Shown here: piece by piece, positions 1 through 39,189 of the stretch
Position numbering within the stretch: position 1 is the first letter of the stretch
Layout of the letters: the number at the start of each line of letters is the position of its first letter
IMG/VR virus record: IMGVR_UViG_2938983465_000007
Strand: one strand, 5' to 3'
Origin: an uncultured virus (IMG/VR IMGVR_UViG_2938983465_000007)
Lineage: Duplodnaviria > Heunggongvirae > Uroviricota > Caudoviricetes
Length of the DNA: 64,000 nucleotides
Notes under the pieces: model-generated
The model's database searches: none
Told to the model about the DNA's origin: nothing
The model's input: the letters and a program-made list of their open reading frames with translations, nothing else
Made by a program: the position numbers and the translations under genes

Positions 1-762
1 CTACCAGTTGAAATAGATCAGTTCCCCTACCTCCTTGCCTTGCGCCCCTCCAACCGTATGCCGGAAAGGGACAGCCTTCAGGCGCAGGCCAGCGAACGCC
101 TTGCGAATGTCTGGGTGATCGTTGATTGAGATCACCATACGCCCTTTCACCGTCCGGGCTAGGTCTGCCATAGCGTGGTACTGCTCCAGCGGGAACACCC
201 CTGGCGCATACCCACTAGTCTGCCAGTAGGGTGGGTCGAGATAGAAAAGCGTCTGCTCCCGGTCATAGCGCCGAATGCAAGCCTGCCAGTCCAGATGCTC
301 GATCGTCGTCCTTGCCAGCCGCAGATGAGCCTCGCTGAGCTTTTCCTCAATGCGTAACAGATTGAGCTTCGGTGGCGTGGTAGCCGCAGTGCCGAATGTC
401 CTTCCCGTCGGCTTTGCGCCAAAGCAGAGCTGCTGCAAGTAGAAGAACCTAGCTGCCCGCTGGATATCCGTCAGGGTCTGGGGAATCTGCATGTTCGCCC
501 ACTCGAACATCTTGCGGCTGACCAGTGACCACTTGAAGTGCCGGACAAGCTCCTCGAGATGATGTGCAACGACCCGGTAGAGGTTCACCACCTCACCGTC
601 GAAATCGTTGATCACCTCGACCTTGCTTGGCTCCTTCATGAAGAAGATGGCAGCCCCACCGCAGAAGGGCTCAACGTAGCACTCATGCTCAGGGAACTCC
701 GGCAGAATGTGCTTGGCCATGCGGCGCTTGCCGCCCATCCATGGAACGATAGGTGTAGACAT
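1..762 (-). CDS. D12-class N6-adenine DNA methyltransferase (Dam-like, orphan)
   Basis: PWMGGKRR, EPFCGG (SAM-binding) and YLDPPY motifs; ATG at 762 preferred over 849 because of the AAGGA RBS and homology with the 39034 paralogue. Confidence 0.93.
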   Translation of the reverse strand: MSTPIVPWMGGKRRMAKHILPEFPEHECYVEPFCGGAAIFFMKEPSKVEVINDFDGEVVNLYRVVAHHLEELVRHFKWSLVSRKMFEWANMQIPQTLTDIQRAARFFYLQQLCFGAKPTGRTFGTAATTPPKLNLLRIEEKLSEAHLRLARTTIEHLDWQACIRRYDREQTLFYLDPPYWQTSGYAPGVFPLEQYHAMADLARTVKGRMVISINDHPDIRKAFAGLRLKAVPFRHTVGGAQGKEVGELIYFNW

Positions 763-771
763 AAGTGATCC

Positions 772-800
772 TTGTGATTGCCTTGGGTTTTGCTTAGGCT
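772..800 (+). promoter_or_regulatory. Putative sigma70 promoter for an RNA antisense to the methyltransferase leader
   Basis: TTGTGA-N17-TAGGCT; the same TAGGCT box is at the equivalent position at 39069-39074. Confidence 0.5.
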
Positions 801-806
801 TCACAC

Positions 807-915
807 CCCCTGCGCAGAGGGGCGAGGCCTTGGTTGGATCACTCGGCATGCTCGAGTGCTTCGACGGCGCGCCCGTGTTGGCGCACAGGCGCGTCGCCTC
901 GTTTCTGCGCAGGGG
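807..915 (+). ncRNA. Putative structured antisense RNA / methyltransferase leader element (copy A)
   Basis: Closing stem 807-828/896-915 enclosing two hairpins; one contains GTGTTGGCGCAC; architecture shared with 39081-39189. Confidence 0.55.
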
Positions 916-917
916 AC

Positions 918-1973
918 TTACTTCACCCCCGGCGCGTCGAATGGCGCGAACCTCACGACCTCTTCCCCGATCAGCTCATTGACCTGCTGCAGGCGCGCCT
1001 GCATTGGCTCGAGTTCCAGGCTGGCCCAGACCGCTGCCGCGTCGCTGATGGATCCGAACCCACCAGCGTTCTGCGGCACCACCCCCATCAGCTGCGGATA
1101 GACCCGTAGGCCGGCGAGCTGGTCGTCGCGGCTGATGTTCTTGATCGAGCCGAACTCGTCCTTGGCCGCCACCTCGCTGACCGGGATCAGTTGGATCCCC
1201 TCCTTCTTCCCGTTCGGCGCGTAGACGAACAGGTTGCGGAAATTGCCAGGCCCCTTCGCAGTCTTCAGCGCCGTGCGCAGCGCGTCGATGTCTTCCTCGT
1301 TCTGTGCGGCGTCGGTCATGTAGAGGATGAAGCCGGCGTGGCTCCCGTTGTTGTAGTACTTACGCCGGAACAGCGTGGCCGACTCGTTCAGCAGGGCGCT
1401 CTGCAGGGCGCAGAACCACTCCGGCACTCCGTAGATTTCCTGATTGATGTCGGCCTCGCGCAGCTGGATCACGCTGCCCTTCTCGAATTCGTGCTCATCC
1501 GTCCAGCTGCGCACCTGGTAGAACGTCTCCAGATCGGTGCCGCGGCGCATGTACTTGGCCAGCGGCGCCTGCAGCGGCATCCGCGTACCCAGGCGAGAAC
1601 GAGGCTGCTCGAGGTATGCCGAGCCGAATGTCAGCCAGTCCAGGGAGAACTGCTCGAACGTCGCCCGGCTGAGCAGGCGGTGCGGGATGAAGGTCTTGGC
1701 CAGCATGTTGCGCTTGAACTTCAGGCCCGACTGCAGGTAAACGCTCGACCCCACCGACTTGGCCAGCCCCTCCATGGACAGCGGCGGCTCGTACCACCGC
1801 CCGTTCGACCAGCACTCGAGATAGTCGAGGATGCCCCGGCCGTCGAGCACCGGCATCGGGTCACCGAAGGTGAAGGCCTCGGCACGGCCACCCTGGCGCG
1901 GGATGAACTCGCCTTCCTGGGCGGACTGGACTGTAACTGGCTGCTGGCGGCGGTGGCTGCGACGTTTGCTCAT
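918..1973 (-). CDS. Q: Portal protein (P2 gpQ / PBSX family)
   Basis: AFTFGDP, WYEPP, YYNNGSHAGFILY and SEVAAKDEF motifs of P2 gpQ. Confidence 0.95.
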   Translation of the reverse strand: MSKRRSHRRQQPVTVQSAQEGEFIPRQGGRAEAFTFGDPMPVLDGRGILDYLECWSNGRWYEPPLSMEGLAKSVGSSVYLQSGLKFKRNMLAKTFIPHRLLSRATFEQFSLDWLTFGSAYLEQPRSRLGTRMPLQAPLAKYMRRGTDLETFYQVRSWTDEHEFEKGSVIQLREADINQEIYGVPEWFCALQSALLNESATLFRRKYYNNGSHAGFILYMTDAAQNEEDIDALRTALKTAKGPGNFRNLFVYAPNGKKEGIQLIPVSEVAAKDEFGSIKNISRDDQLAGLRVYPQLMGVVPQNAGGFGSISDAAAVWASLELEPMQARLQQVNELIGEEVVRFAPFDAPGVK

Positions 1974-3733
1974 CCGAAAATCTCCATGCGGCCGGTATTC
2001 GCGGGGGTCTGCCCCTCGAGCGGCTCGTTCTGCAATGCGTGGAATAGCGCCCAGGCCAGATCGGCGTGGCCGGTGTTGTCGTTGCGGCCGGCGGTATAGG
2101 TGAACTGGCGCCCACCGGCCGTGATGGTCTTGCGGATAGCCATCAGCGCCTGGGCCAGGTCGGTCCAGCCGGCGTCGAATTCGAGGCGGCCGTTCTTGAT
2201 CACTGACCAGGCCTTCATGACCAACTGCGTCTTCACCTCGGGCGAGTAGCTGAAGGTGCGCACCCCCGGGAAGAACTGGCGCACCAGCTGCGCGACGCCA
2301 GAGCCCATGCCGGTGGTGTCGACGCCGATGTAGGTGACCCAGTAGCGCTGGGTCACCTTGCGGATGAACTCGGCCTGTTCGGCGAAGTCCTTGCCGCGGA
2401 ATTGATGGCGCTCCAGCACGCGGAACTTGCCGCCCGGTACCGCCGGCGGCGCCACCACCACCAGACCCGCGGTGTCGCCCGTCTCGGCGGGGTCATAGCC
2501 CAGCCACACCTGGCGATCACCGAACGGCCGCGGCGCGAACGGCTTGTAGTCCTCCGACCACAGGTCCCAGCTATCGACCATGCACGGCTGCAGCATGGTC
2601 AGCGGGAAAATGCTCGCGCCGTCGTCGACGAACTGGCACATCAGCAGGTTCTGGAAAGCCTCGGCGTCGTACTCGAGACGCAGCTCGTCGATGTCGAACA
2701 GGTCGCAGCCACGGGCCTCGGCATCGAGGATGGTGACGATCTGGCGCCAGATGCGGTCCTCGCACAGCCGCCCTTGCTGCAGGGCGTCATGACTTACGTC
2801 GATCTTGATGCGATCGGCGGCCGGCTTGCCCTTGTTGAAGCGCTCGCCAGTCCAGAATGTGTAGGCCTCATGCGCCATCGAGCTGGGCGTCGAGAAATAG
2901 GTCCGGCGGTAGCGCTTCTGCATCGCCATACCGCTGGCGACCTTGTTCAGTTCCTTGAACTTGAACGTCCAGAAGAACTCGTCGAAGTAGAAGTTACCGT
3001 GGTAGCCCTGGGCAGTCCGCGCGTTGGTACCGAGGAAGTGCAGTTCCGCGCCGTTCGGCAGGATGATCGGGTCGCCCTTCAGTTCGACACCTACCGCATC
3101 GCGCGCGAAGGCCTGGATATACGCCTTGAAGATGTGCGCCTGGGCCTTGCTGGCCGACAGGAATATCTGGTTGCGCCCGGTTTCCAGCGCGTCGATCAGC
3201 GCCTCGCGGGCGAAGTAGAACGTGGCGCCGATCTGCCGCGACTTGAGAATCACGCGGGTTCGCTGATTGCCCGCGCGGTACCAGTCTTTCTGGTAGTCGA
3301 AGCAACCGTCGAGGAAGGCCTCGACCAGTTTCTCGGTCAGTTCCTCGCTGATGTCGTTGCGCTTCGGTTTGCGCTTGGGACCTTCGTTACGCTTGGCAAG
3401 CTCGGGGTTCAGGTCGGTTTCCGTACCACCGCCCTGGTAGCGCTGGATCCGCGCCTGGCGCTCAAGCTGCCGATGCAGCAGGTCGATTTCCTTGTAGTCA
3501 CCGCCGGTCTTGCCGTCCTTCAGGATCAACTGAACCAACCGGGCTTCCAGGGCGCCCCCGATCCGTTCTACGCTGTCGGCCCGATCCCATCCGTCGCGGT
3601 CCTTCCATGAGTGAAGGGTCTTGTCCTTCTCGCCCAGGTGATCGGCGATGTCGCAGACACGCCACCCCATCCAGTACAGGAATTTGGCCTGGCGGCGGTT
3701 GTCACGGATGGGAATTTCGACGGCAGCGTTCAT
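1970..3733 (-). CDS. P: Terminase ATPase subunit (P2 gpP)
   Basis: LKSRQIGAT Walker A-like motif, YFDEFFW Walker B, GYDPA nuclease motif, HADLAWA. Confidence 0.95.
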   Translation of the reverse strand: MNAAVEIPIRDNRRQAKFLYWMGWRVCDIADHLGEKDKTLHSWKDRDGWDRADSVERIGGALEARLVQLILKDGKTGGDYKEIDLLHRQLERQARIQRYQGGGTETDLNPELAKRNEGPKRKPKRNDISEELTEKLVEAFLDGCFDYQKDWYRAGNQRTRVILKSRQIGATFYFAREALIDALETGRNQIFLSASKAQAHIFKAYIQAFARDAVGVELKGDPIILPNGAELHFLGTNARTAQGYHGNFYFDEFFWTFKFKELNKVASGMAMQKRYRRTYFSTPSSMAHEAYTFWTGERFNKGKPAADRIKIDVSHDALQQGRLCEDRIWRQIVTILDAEARGCDLFDIDELRLEYDAEAFQNLLMCQFVDDGASIFPLTMLQPCMVDSWDLWSEDYKPFAPRPFGDRQVWLGYDPAETGDTAGLVVVAPPAVPGGKFRVLERHQFRGKDFAEQAEFIRKVTQRYWVTYIGVDTTGMGSGVAQLVRQFFPGVRTFSYSPEVKTQLVMKAWSVIKNGRLEFDAGWTDLAQALMAIRKTITAGGRQFTYTAGRNDNTGHADLAWALFHALQNEPLEGQTPANTGRMEIFG

Positions 3734-3779
3734 GGCGCAGATGCTGCCGCCCACCCTCGCCCCTCAGTAGCGCCGCCCC

Positions 3780-30279: not shown

Positions 30280-32182
30280 GCGCACCCTCTACCATTTCCA
30301 CTTCTGCTGCGGCCTGGGCGGCGGTGCCGCCGGTTTCAACCGGGCGCGTCCGCGGGTCGGCAACGTCGAGGCCGAATGGGTCTGCCTCGGCGGGATCGAC
30401 GTGGACCCAGCCGGCCTGCGCGACTTCGAGCGACTGGCTGGTGTCCCGGGCACCCTGCTGGACCTCTTCACCCGCGACCAGTACGTGCGGTTCCACGGCA
30501 AGGAGCCGCCGGCAGACTGGCGGGAGGCGACCCCGGAAGATATTCGGCGCGCCGCCGGCGGGCGCCGGCCGGATGCCGTGTTCATCAGTTCCCCCTGCAA
30601 GGGCGCCAGCGGCCTGCTGTCCGAGAAAATGAGCCTGACCCCGAAGTACCAGGCGCTGAACGAGTTGACGCTCCGCTGCATCTGGCTGATGGGCGAGGCA
30701 TGGGCTGATGACCCGGTGCCGCTGATCGTCTTCGAGAACGTCCCACGCCTTGCCAGCCGCGGCCGGCACCTGCTGGACCAGATCAACAGCCTGCTCGGTG
30801 GCTTCGGCTACGCCGTGGCGGAAACCACTCACGACTGCGGCGAACTGGGCGGCCTGGCGCAGTCCCGGAAGCGCTTCCTGCTGGTCGCGCGGCATGTCGA
30901 GAAAGTGCCGCCCTTCCTGTACGAGCCGGAAAAGAAGAGCCTGCGCGCCGTCGGCGACATCCTCGGCCGCATGCCGCTACCCGGCGATATCGAGGCTGCC
31001 GGTCCAATGCACCGCGTACCGTCCTTGCAGTGGAAGACCTGGGTGCGCCTCGCTCTGGTGCGAGCCGGCAGCGACTGGCGCAGCCTGAACGACCTGGCCG
31101 TCGAGGACGGCTACCTGCGCGATCTGATCATCGTGCCGGAGTACCACCGGGGCGTCCTGGGCGTGAATCACTGGGGCGATTCGTGTGGCGTTGTCGCCGG
31201 CGCGAGCCGCCCGATGAACGGGCGGTTCTCAGTCGCGGACCCTCGCGCGCCGGCAAACGCCCTGCAGTACCAGCAGTACGGCGTGCGCCGCTGGACCGAC
31301 ACCTCGGGCGCTATCATCGGCGTCAAGTCGCCCGGCCAGGGCACGTACTCCGTCGCCGATCCCCGCGGCCAGAGTTTCGGCAAGTACCCGGTCACCGACT
31401 GGGACGGTCCGTCCGGCACCGTGATCGCGGCCAGTACTACCGGCCAGGGCGCATTCGCCGTGGCAGACCCGCGCCCAGGCGGCGTCCGGCACAACAACGT
31501 GTTTCGCGTCGTCAGCATGGGGAGCCACGCCGGAACCGTCACCGGCGGGCACTCGCCCAGCTCCGGCGGCCAGGCTGTTGCCGATCCCAGGTACCACAAC
31601 TGGCACCCAGGGGCGAGCAGCCGCAAATTGCACGTCGGCGAGTGGGGAAGCGCTACCGGCACGGTCACCGGCTCCCAGCAGGTGGCCAGCGGCGCGCTGT
31701 CGATCGCTGATCCGCGCGTGCTCGATCGCACCAAGGGCGACGCCTACCTGACCGGCGGGCACTACGGCGTAGTGGGGTTCGACCAATCCGCCGGCGCGGT
31801 GTCGGCCAGTGCGCGGCACGACAACGGTCGATGGAGCGTTGCCGATCCGCGCATGCCGGCGGCGAACGACCGGCTGACCTGCATCATCCAGTCGCTGGAC
31901 GGCACCTGGCACCGGCCCTTCACGACCCTTGAGCTCGCCGCCCTGCAGAGCCTGGTTGACCCCGAAGAGCAGTTGGTGCTCGACGGCCTGAGCGACAGCG
32001 ACTGGCGCGAGCGGATCGGCAATGCCGTGCCGCCAGCCGCGGCCGAGGCCATCGCCGGCGTGATGGGCACCACCCTGCTGCTGGCCGAGCAGGGCGAGAC
32101 CTTCATGCTCAGCAATACGCCTATCTGGGTGCGCCCGGTTGCGGTGGCGCTGAGCGTTTCACAACCCGCTGAAAGTCGCTGA
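30272..32182 (+). CDS. C5-cytosine DNA methyltransferase with an expanded, repetitive variable region
   Basis: FCCGLGG (I), SSPCKG (IV), FENV (VI), QSRKR (VIII), IGNAVPP (X). Confidence 0.9.
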   Translation: MLKRTLYHFHFCCGLGGGAAGFNRARPRVGNVEAEWVCLGGIDVDPAGLRDFERLAGVPGTLLDLFTRDQYVRFHGKEPPADWREATPEDIRRAAGGRRPDAVFISSPCKGASGLLSEKMSLTPKYQALNELTLRCIWLMGEAWADDPVPLIVFENVPRLASRGRHLLDQINSLLGGFGYAVAETTHDCGELGGLAQSRKRFLLVARHVEKVPPFLYEPEKKSLRAVGDILGRMPLPGDIEAAGPMHRVPSLQWKTWVRLALVRAGSDWRSLNDLAVEDGYLRDLIIVPEYHRGVLGVNHWGDSCGVVAGASRPMNGRFSVADPRAPANALQYQQYGVRRWTDTSGAIIGVKSPGQGTYSVADPRGQSFGKYPVTDWDGPSGTVIAASTTGQGAFAVADPRPGGVRHNNVFRVVSMGSHAGTVTGGHSPSSGGQAVADPRYHNWHPGASSRKLHVGEWGSATGTVTGSQQVASGALSIADPRVLDRTKGDAYLTGGHYGVVGFDQSAGAVSASARHDNGRWSVADPRMPAANDRLTCIIQSLDGTWHRPFTTLELAALQSLVDPEEQLVLDGLSDSDWRERIGNAVPPAAAEAIAGVMGTTLLLAEQGETFMLSNTPIWVRPVAVALSVSQPAESR

Positions 32183-38230: not shown

Positions 38231-39034
38231 CTATATCCCGACGAACAAACCGCCGAGGGCGGCAGGCTCCCAGTTCATGATCACCAGCTCGCCAGTGACC
38301 TCGGCCGAGCCTTGTCGCTGGTTGGTGTTGCTGTAGCGGATATCCAGGCGCTCCATATGGAAGCCTTCGAACACCCGGCGGATATCTGGATGGTCATTGA
38401 TGCTGACCATTACCTTCCCCTTGCAGCGGCGCATGAAGTCGGCCATCCGCTCGTACTCTTCGAACAGGAAGTCCACGCCGTAGCCCTCGGTCTGCCAGTA
38501 CGGCGGGTCCATGTAATGAAAGGTGTGCGGGCGATCGTAGCGCTCAACGCACTCAAGCCACGGCAGATTCTCAACATAGGTTCCCGCCAGCCGCTGCCAT
38601 GCAGCTGACAGGTTTTCCTCGATGCGCAGGAGGTTGACGGCCGGGCCTGTTGTCGCGGTGCCGAACGTTTGCCCGCTGACCTTACCGCCGAAAGCATGGT
38701 GCTGCAGGTAGAAGAAACGAGCGGCCCTCTGAATGTCGGTCAACGTCTCTGGTCGTGTCATCTTCTGCCACTCGAATACCTGACGCGACGAGATCGCCCA
38801 CTTGAACTGGCGCACGAACTCCTCGAGGTGATGCTTCACCACCCGATAGAGGCACACGACATCGCCGTTCAAGTCGTTCAGCACCTCAGTCTGAGCAGGA
38901 ACTGGACGCAGAAAATACAACGCTGCACCACCGGCGAAGGCCTCGACATAGCATTCATGGGGCGGGAAGAGAGGGATGAGACGGTCGGCAAGGCGCCGCT
39001 TTCCGCCCATCCATGGGAAAACAGGACTGGTCAT
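38231..39034 (-). CDS. D12-class N6-adenine DNA methyltransferase (paralogue of 1..762)
   Basis: PWMGGKRR, EAFAGG, LTDIQRAARFFYLQ, YMDPPY. Confidence 0.93.
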   Translation of the reverse strand: MTSPVFPWMGGKRRLADRLIPLFPPHECYVEAFAGGAALYFLRPVPAQTEVLNDLNGDVVCLYRVVKHHLEEFVRQFKWAISSRQVFEWQKMTRPETLTDIQRAARFFYLQHHAFGGKVSGQTFGTATTGPAVNLLRIEENLSAAWQRLAGTYVENLPWLECVERYDRPHTFHYMDPPYWQTEGYGVDFLFEEYERMADFMRRCKGKVMVSINDHPDIRRVFEGFHMERLDIRYSNTNQRQGSAEVTGELVIMNWEPAALGGLFVGI

Positions 39035-39048
39035 ATTGCAAGCCTTTA

Positions 39049-39074
39049 CTGTATGGATAAACAGGTGTTAGGCT
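39049..39074 (+). promoter_or_regulatory. LexA box next to an extended -10 promoter pointing away from the methyltransferase
   Basis: CTGTATGGATAAACAG (39049-39064), TGT-TAGGCT (39066-39074). Confidence 0.8.
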
Positions 39075-39080
39075 CCGCTC

Positions 39081-39189
39081 GCTTCGTGCACGAGGCGGGA
39101 GCCTGGGCTGGGCTTGCAGGGTAGGTCTGCAGGTTCAGCGACCGCGACGATGTGACAGCACCGTTGCGGTCGCTCCTTCTATTTGCACG
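39081..39189 (+). ncRNA. Putative structured antisense RNA / methyltransferase leader element (copy B)
   Basis: Closing stem CGTGCA..GGGAGC / GCTCCT..TGCACG enclosing two hairpins equivalent to copy A. Confidence 0.55.

Follow-up and report, generated by a model that had tools for sequence, protein, structure and literature searches.

A widespread leader element with a predicted cis-antisense RNA upstream of phage DNA-modification genes

The 64,000-nucleotide (nt) stretch of DNA analyzed here, referred to throughout as the window, belongs to an uncultured virus of the Caudoviricetes (IMG/VR record IMGVR_UViG_2938983465_000007) and encodes two D12-class (Dam-family) adenine methylases, A and B, each of which is preceded by an intergenic element of approximately 150 nt. 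A first-pass annotation had recognized the two genes as paralogs residing in different prophages with start codons at 762 and 39034; these coordinates are correct and the proteins are 56% identical. Methylase A matches PF02086 and falls just under the cut-off of TIGR00571 (105.9 bits, cut-off 114.85), as does methylase B, which likewise matches PF02086. Whichever strand is considered, both intergenic regions fold more stably than their dinucleotide shuffles (z from -4.6 to -5.9, with 0/200 shuffles reaching the same stability). Each element combines two predicted RNA devices, namely an anti-Shine-Dalgarno (anti-SD) segment in the mRNA that would pair with the ribosome-binding region (the lock helix) and, on the opposite strand, a gene for a small antisense RNA. 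The hairpins of the element are designated P1 to P3, and R1 is the covariance model that describes it. The parts of the two copies are as follows.

1..762, minus strand: D12-class (Dam-family) adenine methylase A, 253 amino acids (aa); ATG at 762-760, stop codon at 1-3; PF02086 E 1.4e-23
764..773, minus strand: copy A ribosome-binding region; Shine-Dalgarno AAGGA at 773-769, with GGAUCACU (771-764) as the ribosome-binding-site arm of the lock helix
772..800, plus strand: copy A predicted antisense promoter; TTGTGA at 772-777, 17-nt spacer, TAGGCT at 795-800
806..905, plus strand: copy A predicted antisense RNA of ~100 nt, from the fold and an R1 match at 760-908 (78.2 bits); deduced ends
Within it, plus strand: 5' hairpin 807-822; GGCCTTGG box 826-833; P2 840-858; terminator P1 863-898 with tail CUCGUUUCU
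836..845, minus strand: copy A anti-SD, mRNA CGAGUGAUCC, overlapping the 3' arm of the sense P2 hairpin
809..915, no strand assigned: outer inverted repeat of clade A only, CCCTGCGCAGA (809-819) with TCTGCGCAGGG (905-915), two copies of a palindromic motif
38231..39034, minus strand: D12-class adenine methylase B, 267 aa
39037..39046, minus strand: copy B ribosome-binding region, AAAGGCUUGCA then AUAUG; ribosome-binding-site arm of the lock helix
39045..39074, plus strand: copy B predicted antisense promoter; TTTACT at 39045-39050, 18-nt spacer ending in TGT, TAGGCT at 39069-39074
39081..39184, plus strand: copy B predicted antisense RNA of ~104 nt, from the fold and an R1 match at 39032-39184 (128 bits); deduced ends
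Within it, plus strand: P3 hairpin; P2 39111-39136; terminator P1 39137-39174 with tail CCUUCUAUUU
39110..39121, minus strand: copy B anti-SD, mRNA CCCUGCAAGCCC

Most of the architecture proposed in the first-pass annotation can be read directly from the two copies. In copy A, both hexamers of TTGTGA-N17-TAGGCT are found, with TAGGCT 33 nt from the ATG, and the 8 nt AGTGATCC (764-771) are an exact inverted repeat of GGATCACT (836-843). The middle hairpin is formed by CACTCG/CGAGTG at 840-845/853-858 and the GC hairpin occupies 863-898 with GTGTTGGCGCAC at its tip. Copy B carries TAGGCT 35 nt from its start codon, in accordance with the 33-35 range given for the two copies, and the partners TGCAAGCC (39037-39044) and GGCTTGCA (39111-39118) pair as described. 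The long closing stem fared less well, since it is seen in copy A (809-819/905-915) but is neither present outside the copy A clade, among leaders judged by eye, nor part of R1. This stem arises because a 14-nt palindrome, CCCCTGCGCAGGGG (or most of it), is repeated on either side of the predicted antisense gene, at window positions 807-822 and 905-917; the other clades lack the palindrome. GATC, the usual Dam site, occurs in both lock arms of copy A (764-771 and 836-843), and one of the two overlaps the ribosome-binding site and is adjacent to the predicted antisense -35.

The loci sampled for comparison were those of the 80 best methylase relatives out of 353 in genomes and of the 80 best out of 590 in viruses. 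They yielded 158 leaders, reduced to 78 non-redundant ones, of which 58 were judged by eye to share one architecture, both window copies included. R1 (148 positions, 29 pairs) was built from these 58 representatives, such that both window copies are in its seed. RNAalifold recovered hardly any structure from a MAFFT alignment, in which the helix arms were misaligned, and per-sequence folds together with a hand-set structure were used instead. Read in the mRNA sense, the element begins with a purine tract, which is followed by the GC hairpin P1 with its conserved tip, the small hairpin P2, whose 3' arm runs into the anti-SD, a GCCAAGGCY box, the hairpin P3 ending in AGCCUA, a linker of 12-39 nt and lastly the ribosome-binding site and start codon. 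Full-length R1 matches of ~150 nt were obtained at 65 of the 80 genomic and 70 of the 80 viral loci of related D12 methylases, and all 135 lie on the strand of the gene, abut its start codon and share the same orientation. Three of the 15 genomic loci devoid of a match have hardly any upstream DNA, and R1 recovered three leaders that had earlier been set aside by eye (L037, L042 and L108). Judged from sequence comparison, the two window copies are members of one widespread RNA family. The element is not obligatory for such genes, being absent from close methylase relatives (L004-L007 and L096-L099) that likewise come after the portal gene. Elsewhere in the window, R1 gives a partial match at 30429-30493 on the plus strand (15.7 bits, E 0.0075, model positions 11-74) consisting of a P1-like GC hairpin inside an apparent coding sequence, which is probably due to chance.

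The lock is a 9-bp helix between the upstream anti-SD (CCUGYRAGYC) and the ribosome-binding region. Its covariation was measured on a model alignment, A4, of 64 distinct leaders, the model of which does not include the lock helix. In this alignment, 82.8% of the lock cells are paired, compared to 71.6% in shuffled pairings and 14-40% in slid controls, and 67 cells are changed on both sides vs 25.4 in shuffles (0/500). Two-sided changes affect six of the nine lock-helix pairs among the 64 leaders; the concerted change of both partners, initially noticed between copies A and B, is therefore a family-wide property. Clade by clade, the anti-SD and ribosome-binding partners are CGAGUGAUCC with GGAUCACU, CUGCAAGCC with GGCUUGCAG, CUGCAAGUC with GACUUGCA, and CUGUGAGCC with GGCUCAC or GGCUUACAG. 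Cognate duplexes have a mean energy of -10.8 kcal/mol vs -7.0 kcal/mol for non-cognate ones and are the better of the two in 49/58 representatives, while in free-leader ensembles the lock helix has at least 4 expected pairs in 38/58. For copy A, the anti-SD:ribosome-binding-site duplex amounts to -14.6 kcal/mol with 8.5 expected pairs in the free-leader ensemble; for copy B, the minimum-energy fold of the mRNA sense pairs the ribosome-binding region with the anti-SD (duplex -14.7 kcal/mol). The covarying helix, the energies and the ensemble folds all support the original suggestion that the anti-SD sequesters the Shine-Dalgarno and spacer in the mRNA. As the predicted antisense RNA does not contain the ribosome-binding site, the lock helix can act only in the mRNA.

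On the opposite strand, the element bears four independent signatures of a small RNA gene, in its promoter-like hexamer, its terminator, the strand of its helices and its predicted product. A predicted -10 is located 12-39 nt upstream of the start codon and is directed away from it. Among the 58 representatives, this hexamer is TAGGCT in 38, TAGCCT in 6, TAGACT in 3, TAGAAT in 3 and TAAACT in 2, with single occurrences of TAAAAT, TAAGAT, TAAGCT, TACGCT, TAGTCT and CATACT. Its conservation is that of TAnnnT (T1 57/58, A2 58/58, T6 58/58), and a TG at -15/-14, one base before the hexamer (TGn), is found in 44/58. A TTGACA-like -35 matching at least 4/6 positions lies 16-18 nt upstream of the hexamer in 35/58, vs a background of 13%. 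The hexamer thus appears to vary as -10 elements do, and its sense-strand partner is mostly not compensated. At the other end of the gene, the 12 nt following P1 contain a mean of 6.28 T in the antisense direction vs 1.09 in the sense direction, with at least 5 T in 54/58 vs 0/58. The predicted antisense RNA is 102-111 nt long in all 58.

The hairpins themselves also point to the antisense strand, which folds better for P1 in 51/58 representatives, for P2 in 54/58 and overall in 55/58; the composition-corrected fold z-score (25 shuffles) is -4.17 for the antisense vs -2.70 for the sense strand. Pairs that are G·U in the antisense and A·C in the sense strand outnumber those that are G·U in the sense strand by 201:20 in P1 and 287:5 in P2, as counted on the 123 distinct aligned copies that were left once duplicates and partial matches had been dropped from 144 rows. 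When the sequences are grouped into 19 clusters (average-linkage distance of 0.30, ~70% identity), 18 have more antisense G·U pairs and 0 have fewer, and the antisense fold is the more stable one in 19/19. The argument that G-U pairs favor a plus-strand RNA, which had been made for the two copies, consequently extends to the family and assigns P1 and P2 to the antisense RNA. Helices P1-P3 contain 22 pairs with two-sided changes vs 13.3 in shuffles (0/500). Antisense P2 has 7-9 pairs, whereas sense P2 is weakened by A·C mismatches. The predicted antisense RNA covers the anti-SD and ends before the ribosome-binding site in 58/58 representatives, just as had been anticipated from copy A. We conclude that both RNA devices are very probably real and conserved. 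Comparative analysis demonstrates that the element is conserved and portable (see below), that its lock covaries, on which strand P1 and P2 form, and that signatures of a promoter and a terminator are present, while the antisense RNA itself, with its ends and strand, is a prediction.

Several other readings of these features were considered and rejected. A hidden peptide in the antisense RNA is ruled out, as 23/58 representatives lack any ATG in it; a sigma-54 promoter in the conserved box is ruled out by eye, since the GG-to-GC spacing is two bases short; and a sense promoter upstream of P1 finds no counterpart across clades, where only the purine tract is conserved. The P1 loop reads TTGACG or TTGGCG on the antisense strand in 30/58 and is the reverse complement in others. 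Correspondingly, the 12-nt P1 tip (window 875-886) reads GUGUUGRCGCAC on the antisense strand in most leaders and its reverse complement in about a dozen (for example L032, L045, L075 and L103), as expected of loop inversion within a hairpin. In 47/58, one or the other strand has a YUNR-type loop start. Such loop starts fit loop-loop recognition between two RNAs, which is no proof of it here.

The genetic surroundings of the two copies illustrate how the element travels. Copy A follows the genes listed here.

3754..1970, minus strand: terminase P
1973..918, minus strand: portal Q, followed by a 155-nt gap and then methylase A

These Q and P genes are 96-98% identical to those of phiCTX-type P2-like Pseudomonas phages, and the similarity stops at window position 928; in phiCTX, unlike copy A, ctx and cosL occupy the space beyond Q. 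In a related locus (L083, 2260-3136), the methylase A stop codon is followed by ~800 nt without a convincing open reading frame (ORF) and then by a tRNA-Gly(ccc) on the opposite strand, from which we take methylase A to be the final gene at that prophage end. The copy B methylase comes after endolysin, Rz and Rz1-like genes in another prophage, which is 99.9% identical to phage Meadow. In Burkholderia phage AP3, the element (84.7 bits) is located between the tail-fibre and tail-sheath genes, where it precedes genes for a Com-like 'translational regulator' and an N6_N4-family methylase. The portability suggested by the first-pass annotation is thereby upheld in two respects: 1) the cassette occurs after portal, lysis or tail-fibre genes, and 2) it precedes either a D12 methylase directly or com, which in turn is followed by a D12 methylase, by an N6_N4 methylase (AP3) or by cargo other than a methylase. 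There are ten relatives in which a Com-like ORF overlaps the methylase start and the element precedes com, so the gated gene would be the first gene of the modification cassette, often com and not the methylase itself. Com-family ORFs of relatives match PF10122 at 46-66 bits.

The element was found in Pseudomonas, Burkholderia and Pandoraea, in Ralstonia phages, in nitrifiers and in others, and would appear to gate DNA-modification genes in many temperate phages of beta- and gammaproteobacteria. Among isolated phages it is present in AP3, Mana, KS5, Meadow and Lodos, where the site is either unannotated or, in Mana, has a hypothetical ORF called across it. This Mana ORF (gp23, 'hypothetical protein', 2517-2729 in L171) lies across an R1 match at 2501-2638 (86.8 bits) and is probably mis-called; no Com-like gene is annotated between the element and the methylase of this phage. 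A search with R1 alone returned 7 matches in 34 genomes of the genus around G001, all upstream of a D12 methylase or Com-like ORF: four precede a D12 methylase and three precede a Com-family ORF (PF10122) followed by non-methylase cargo. In a phylum-wide sample, R1 matched 3/151 genomes, one of them strongly (61 bits), which is the sporadic occurrence expected of prophage cargo. Two loci have the element and a Com-family ORF (PF10122) with no methylase: in L166 (1501-3096) these are followed by a 429-aa protein with a signal-peptide-like N-terminus, and in L168 (1501-2177) by small ORFs. The absence of a methylase from both indicates that the cassette gates other cargo too.

Based upon these features, a mechanism can be proposed for the cassette, a unit of ~150 nt that immediately precedes a modification module whose first gene is that of a Dam-family methylase or of a Com-like translational regulator. 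Firstly, the sense mRNA would arrive by read-through from upstream late genes, and its anti-SD would base-pair with the Shine-Dalgarno (3' half) and with the spacer as far as the start codon, the lock stacking on P3. Secondly, the opposite strand would express a small RNA from an extended -10 (TGnTAnnnT), with P1 and a U/C-rich tail as its terminator. We infer that this antisense RNA is made and pairs with the leader; it would be fully complementary to P3, the anti-SD/P2 region and P1 and would stop short of the ribosome-binding site. Thirdly, it would dock on single strands of the locked leader, namely the apical loops and, within the weak sense P2, the loop and its 5' arm, and would free the ribosome-binding site from the anti-SD, thereby opening translation as an anti-antisense key. 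The crippling of sense P2 by A·C mismatches implies that the lock wins in the mRNA and that the 5' arm and loop of P2 are free as a toehold.

Activation is favored because antisense pairing must remove the anti-SD, spares the ribosome-binding site and finds a landing site left by sense P2. We lean, by a modest degree, towards this lock-and-key explanation as a whole. That the antisense RNA activates translation is a tentative part of it, the sign of control being deduced from the predicted structures. More tentative still is the full proposal of a self-contained cassette, in which a cis-encoded antisense RNA activates by toehold displacement of the anti-SD and which travels between unrelated temperate phages and cargo. 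Such a cassette would stand one level above the classic Com switch. Since their anti-SD, ribosome-binding-site and loop sequences differ, copies A and B would work side by side without cross-talk. Feedback is a further possibility, in which a Dam-family enzyme that methylates the adenine of the antisense -10, or the GATC at the copy A -35/ribosome-binding site, tunes its own key.

A number of observations weigh against this explanation. The sequences are related, such that the counts overstate independence, and the loci examined are only the closest 80 of 353 in genomes and 80 of 590 in viruses. A sigma-70 consensus scan calls no promoter in copy A or copy B, as TAGGCT matches TATAAT at only 3/6 positions, and a terminator scan calls a plus-strand terminator-like site in copy A (879-896, tail CCTCGTTTCT) and none in copy B. 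The G·U asymmetry could be partly compositional because the sense strand is C/A-rich, even though the shuffle z-scores still favor the antisense strand. In copy B, the lock and the competing sense P2 are about equal (2.7 vs 3.2 expected pairs). RNA sequencing offers little guidance: 13 runs on record contain, as unstranded contigs, half or more of the words sampled from window 1-1000, and the four that were mapped yield contigs at 1-904 (X1), 1-819 (X2) and 1-987 (X7) and a single contig across 1-2500 (X13). As these contigs are unstranded and end at different places, they neither show nor exclude the antisense RNA, and uncovered stretches are no evidence. The X1 contig spans methylase, leader and P1 and stops at 904, coinciding with the end of the antisense terminator tail, and has a depth of 20 vs 4-10 for the portal contigs; coming from a single unstranded study, this is only a curiosity.

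Four further points weigh specifically against activation and speak for the leading rival, in which the same two-part cassette is retained and the antisense RNA acts as a repressor. An excess of it would pair with leaky read-through mRNA and lead to RNase III cleavage and decay, or else block an upstream ribosome loading site, and the methylase or Com would be made only once late transcription outruns it. The same logic underlies type I toxin-antitoxin systems and lambda OOP, and the cis-antisense RNAs known for toxic or otherwise harmful genes mostly repress. The predicted gain in ribosome-binding-site accessibility upon antisense binding is small, the unpaired probability being 0.43 in the free leader vs 0.50 with the antisense-covered part blocked (up in 30/58, down in 5/58). 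The GCCAAGGCY box, the best-conserved unpaired box of the leader (C96 56/58, G99 56/58, C101 58/58), is Shine-Dalgarno-like and could be a ribosome loading site masked by the antisense RNA. Finally, ~8/58 representatives (the Burkholderia/Pandoraea clade, L020 and L059) keep the antisense gene and have no lock by either measure, which means that a pure key role does not account for the antisense gene there. A methylase in the place of mom is also expected to be harmful if mistimed, according to PMC3299994. Against repression, the ribosome-binding site, which would be the simplest target, is covered in 0/58 representatives (19 clusters), and full pairing necessarily strips the anti-SD from it. 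Moreover, in the mRNA GCCAAGGCY also forms the base of P3 by pairing with the -10 complement, where some changes are compensatory, and need not be a free loading site. Overall, we consider the repressor unlikely, albeit a serious contender.

In the Burkholderia/Pandoraea clade, five leaders (L011, L032, L045, L062 and L148) have neither a Shine-Dalgarno in the last 25 nt before the ATG nor a lock helix. In the same five, a stop codon abuts the methylase ATG (UAGAUG or UAAAUG), and in L045 a 6-codon mini-ORF ends at this ATG. These arrangements hint that leaders of this clade may use translational coupling instead of a lock.

A second rival dispenses with the antisense RNA and interprets the element as a sense-only cis-regulatory leader, read by a protein (e.g. 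a Com-like factor), by temperature or by a ligand, with the TAnnnT box and the purine tract before P1 serving the mRNA. It would agree with the covariation of the lock helix and the P3 base in the sense RNA, with the Com-family genes that accompany the element at many loci, with the consensus scan that calls no promoter and with the status of the antisense RNA as a prediction only. Yet the sense strand has A·C over G·U by 10:1 in P1 and 57:1 in P2, a trend shared by 18/19 clusters, which leaves these helices mismatched in the mRNA and whole in the antisense RNA; a T tail comes after P1 on the antisense strand only; the hexamer varies exactly as a -10 would, mostly uncompensated in its sense partner; and the window has no Com-like ORF, as judged by a CxxC...C[PSA]RC pattern. 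We therefore regard a sense-only leader as very improbable. Least credible of all is a DNA-level or structural element such as a P2-like cos, a REP-like palindrome, a recombination site or a terminator of the upstream late operon, since, although P2-type cos lies downstream of the portal gene as copy A does and a P1 loop in either orientation would be tolerable for a double-stranded DNA site, a cos site is ruled out by the positions after lysis genes and between the tail-fibre and tail-sheath genes of AP3 as well as by the 1.4 kb, including ctx, that separate cosL from the portal gene in phiCTX, a REP element or sense-strand terminator is ruled out by the single orientation relative to the downstream gene (135/135 full-length matches) and the lack of a sense T tail after P1 (0/58), and the compensatory helix changes indicate RNA.

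Comparison with known systems reveals both parallels and clear distinctions. No Rfam 15 family reaches its gathering threshold anywhere in the window, and no full-length match at that level, which would have made the element a known one, was obtained. At relaxed thresholds (E<=10 for the two copies, E<=1 for 18 homologous loci), the antisense strand returned only sub-threshold SymR hairpins and one ctRNA. The first-pass annotation had likened the terminal hairpin to that of E. coli SymR, and the likeness is correct for the tip, as GUGuUGgcgCAC is found in the Rfam symR consensus, but does not extend to the family, as the match at 865-896 on the plus strand scores 25.4 bits vs a gathering threshold of 61 and involves model positions 42-73 only. 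The SymR/SymE system (RF01809) is comparable insofar as it also pairs a small cis-antisense RNA with a potentially harmful target, beside the restriction-modification genes hsdS and mcrB, and the terminator-hairpin tips are nearly identical, with GUGUUGGCGCAC exact in both the copy A antisense strand and the symR consensus. In one relative (L002), the symR model even aligns at full length to two hairpins of the antisense strand (28.7 bits, gathering 61). A terminal hairpin tipped by GUGUUGGCGCAC, however, does not by itself define SymR membership. R1 detects nothing but the hairpin at the E. coli symE/symR locus (aligned to P1; 11 bits, E 0.017). Annotated SymR overlaps the symE start, whereas the antisense RNA of the element would stop short of the ribosome-binding site, which is situated under the antisense -35 and is not transcribed on the antisense strand. 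The target genes are also unrelated. Taken on these grounds, the element is not a member of the SymR family.

A D12-methyl RNA motif, reportedly described by Weinberg and colleagues in 2017, is said to precede D12-class methylase genes. Neither D12-methyl nor C4 antisense RNA was among the Rfam matches, a result limited for D12-methyl by the fact that its presence among the 4227 models is not established. The main text of PMC5737381 does not mention D12, and a possible account of D12-methyl would be in its supplement, which was unreadable. Identity with this motif is accordingly neither shown nor fully excluded, and there is a small chance that the element has been partly catalogued.

The com-mom region of phage Mu resembles the element in having a post-transcriptional gate on a DNA-modification gene by way of a stem that hides the ribosome-binding site, and Com-family genes (PF10122) are located between the element and the methylase in many relatives. 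Pairs of Com and an adenine methylase in Mu-like prophages, with possible Com sites at hin1523, are described in PMC3299994. The key of Mu is the Com protein, whereas the predicted key of the element is an antisense RNA, and where com is present it is com that the element would gate. R1 has no match in the Mu com-mom region at E<=0.1 with filters off, and the stem hiding the ribosome-binding site is analogous, not homologous, to that of Mu. A mechanistic parallel is provided by DsrA or RprA acting on rpoS, where a complementary segment upstream locks the ribosome-binding site and a small RNA that pairs with this segment frees it by anti-antisense activation, as is proposed for the element; DsrA and RprA, however, are trans-encoded, pair imperfectly and depend upon Hfq, whereas the RNA of the element would be cis-encoded, perfectly complementary and in one cassette with its target. 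Structured leaders with a sequestered ribosome-binding site and an antisense RNA pairing upstream are also known from hok/sok, tisB/IstR-1 and zorO/orzO. These type I toxin-antitoxin systems repress small membrane toxins, unlike the element, whose cargo is a methylase or Com-like protein and whose pairing geometry is centered on the anti-SD.

In the literature searched, no description of the antisense RNA or of this leader was found, and we rate the element, which accompanies DNA-modification cassettes of phages, as an apparently new and widespread variant of control by cis-antisense RNA. The shared hairpin tip additionally hints that the E. coli SymR terminator hairpin may have common ancestry with mobile restriction-modification control elements. 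Phage annotations can be corrected wherever ORFs have been called across the element. The proposed cassette is also a compact test case for cis-antisense activation vs repression, and it supplies naturally orthogonal pairs of RNA locks and keys. For the phages themselves, timing matters, as orphan methylases shield phage DNA from restriction and can rewrite host methylation. The model for the control of such genes has so far been the Mu protein Com, to which the element would add a second, RNA-based and apparently more widespread gate.

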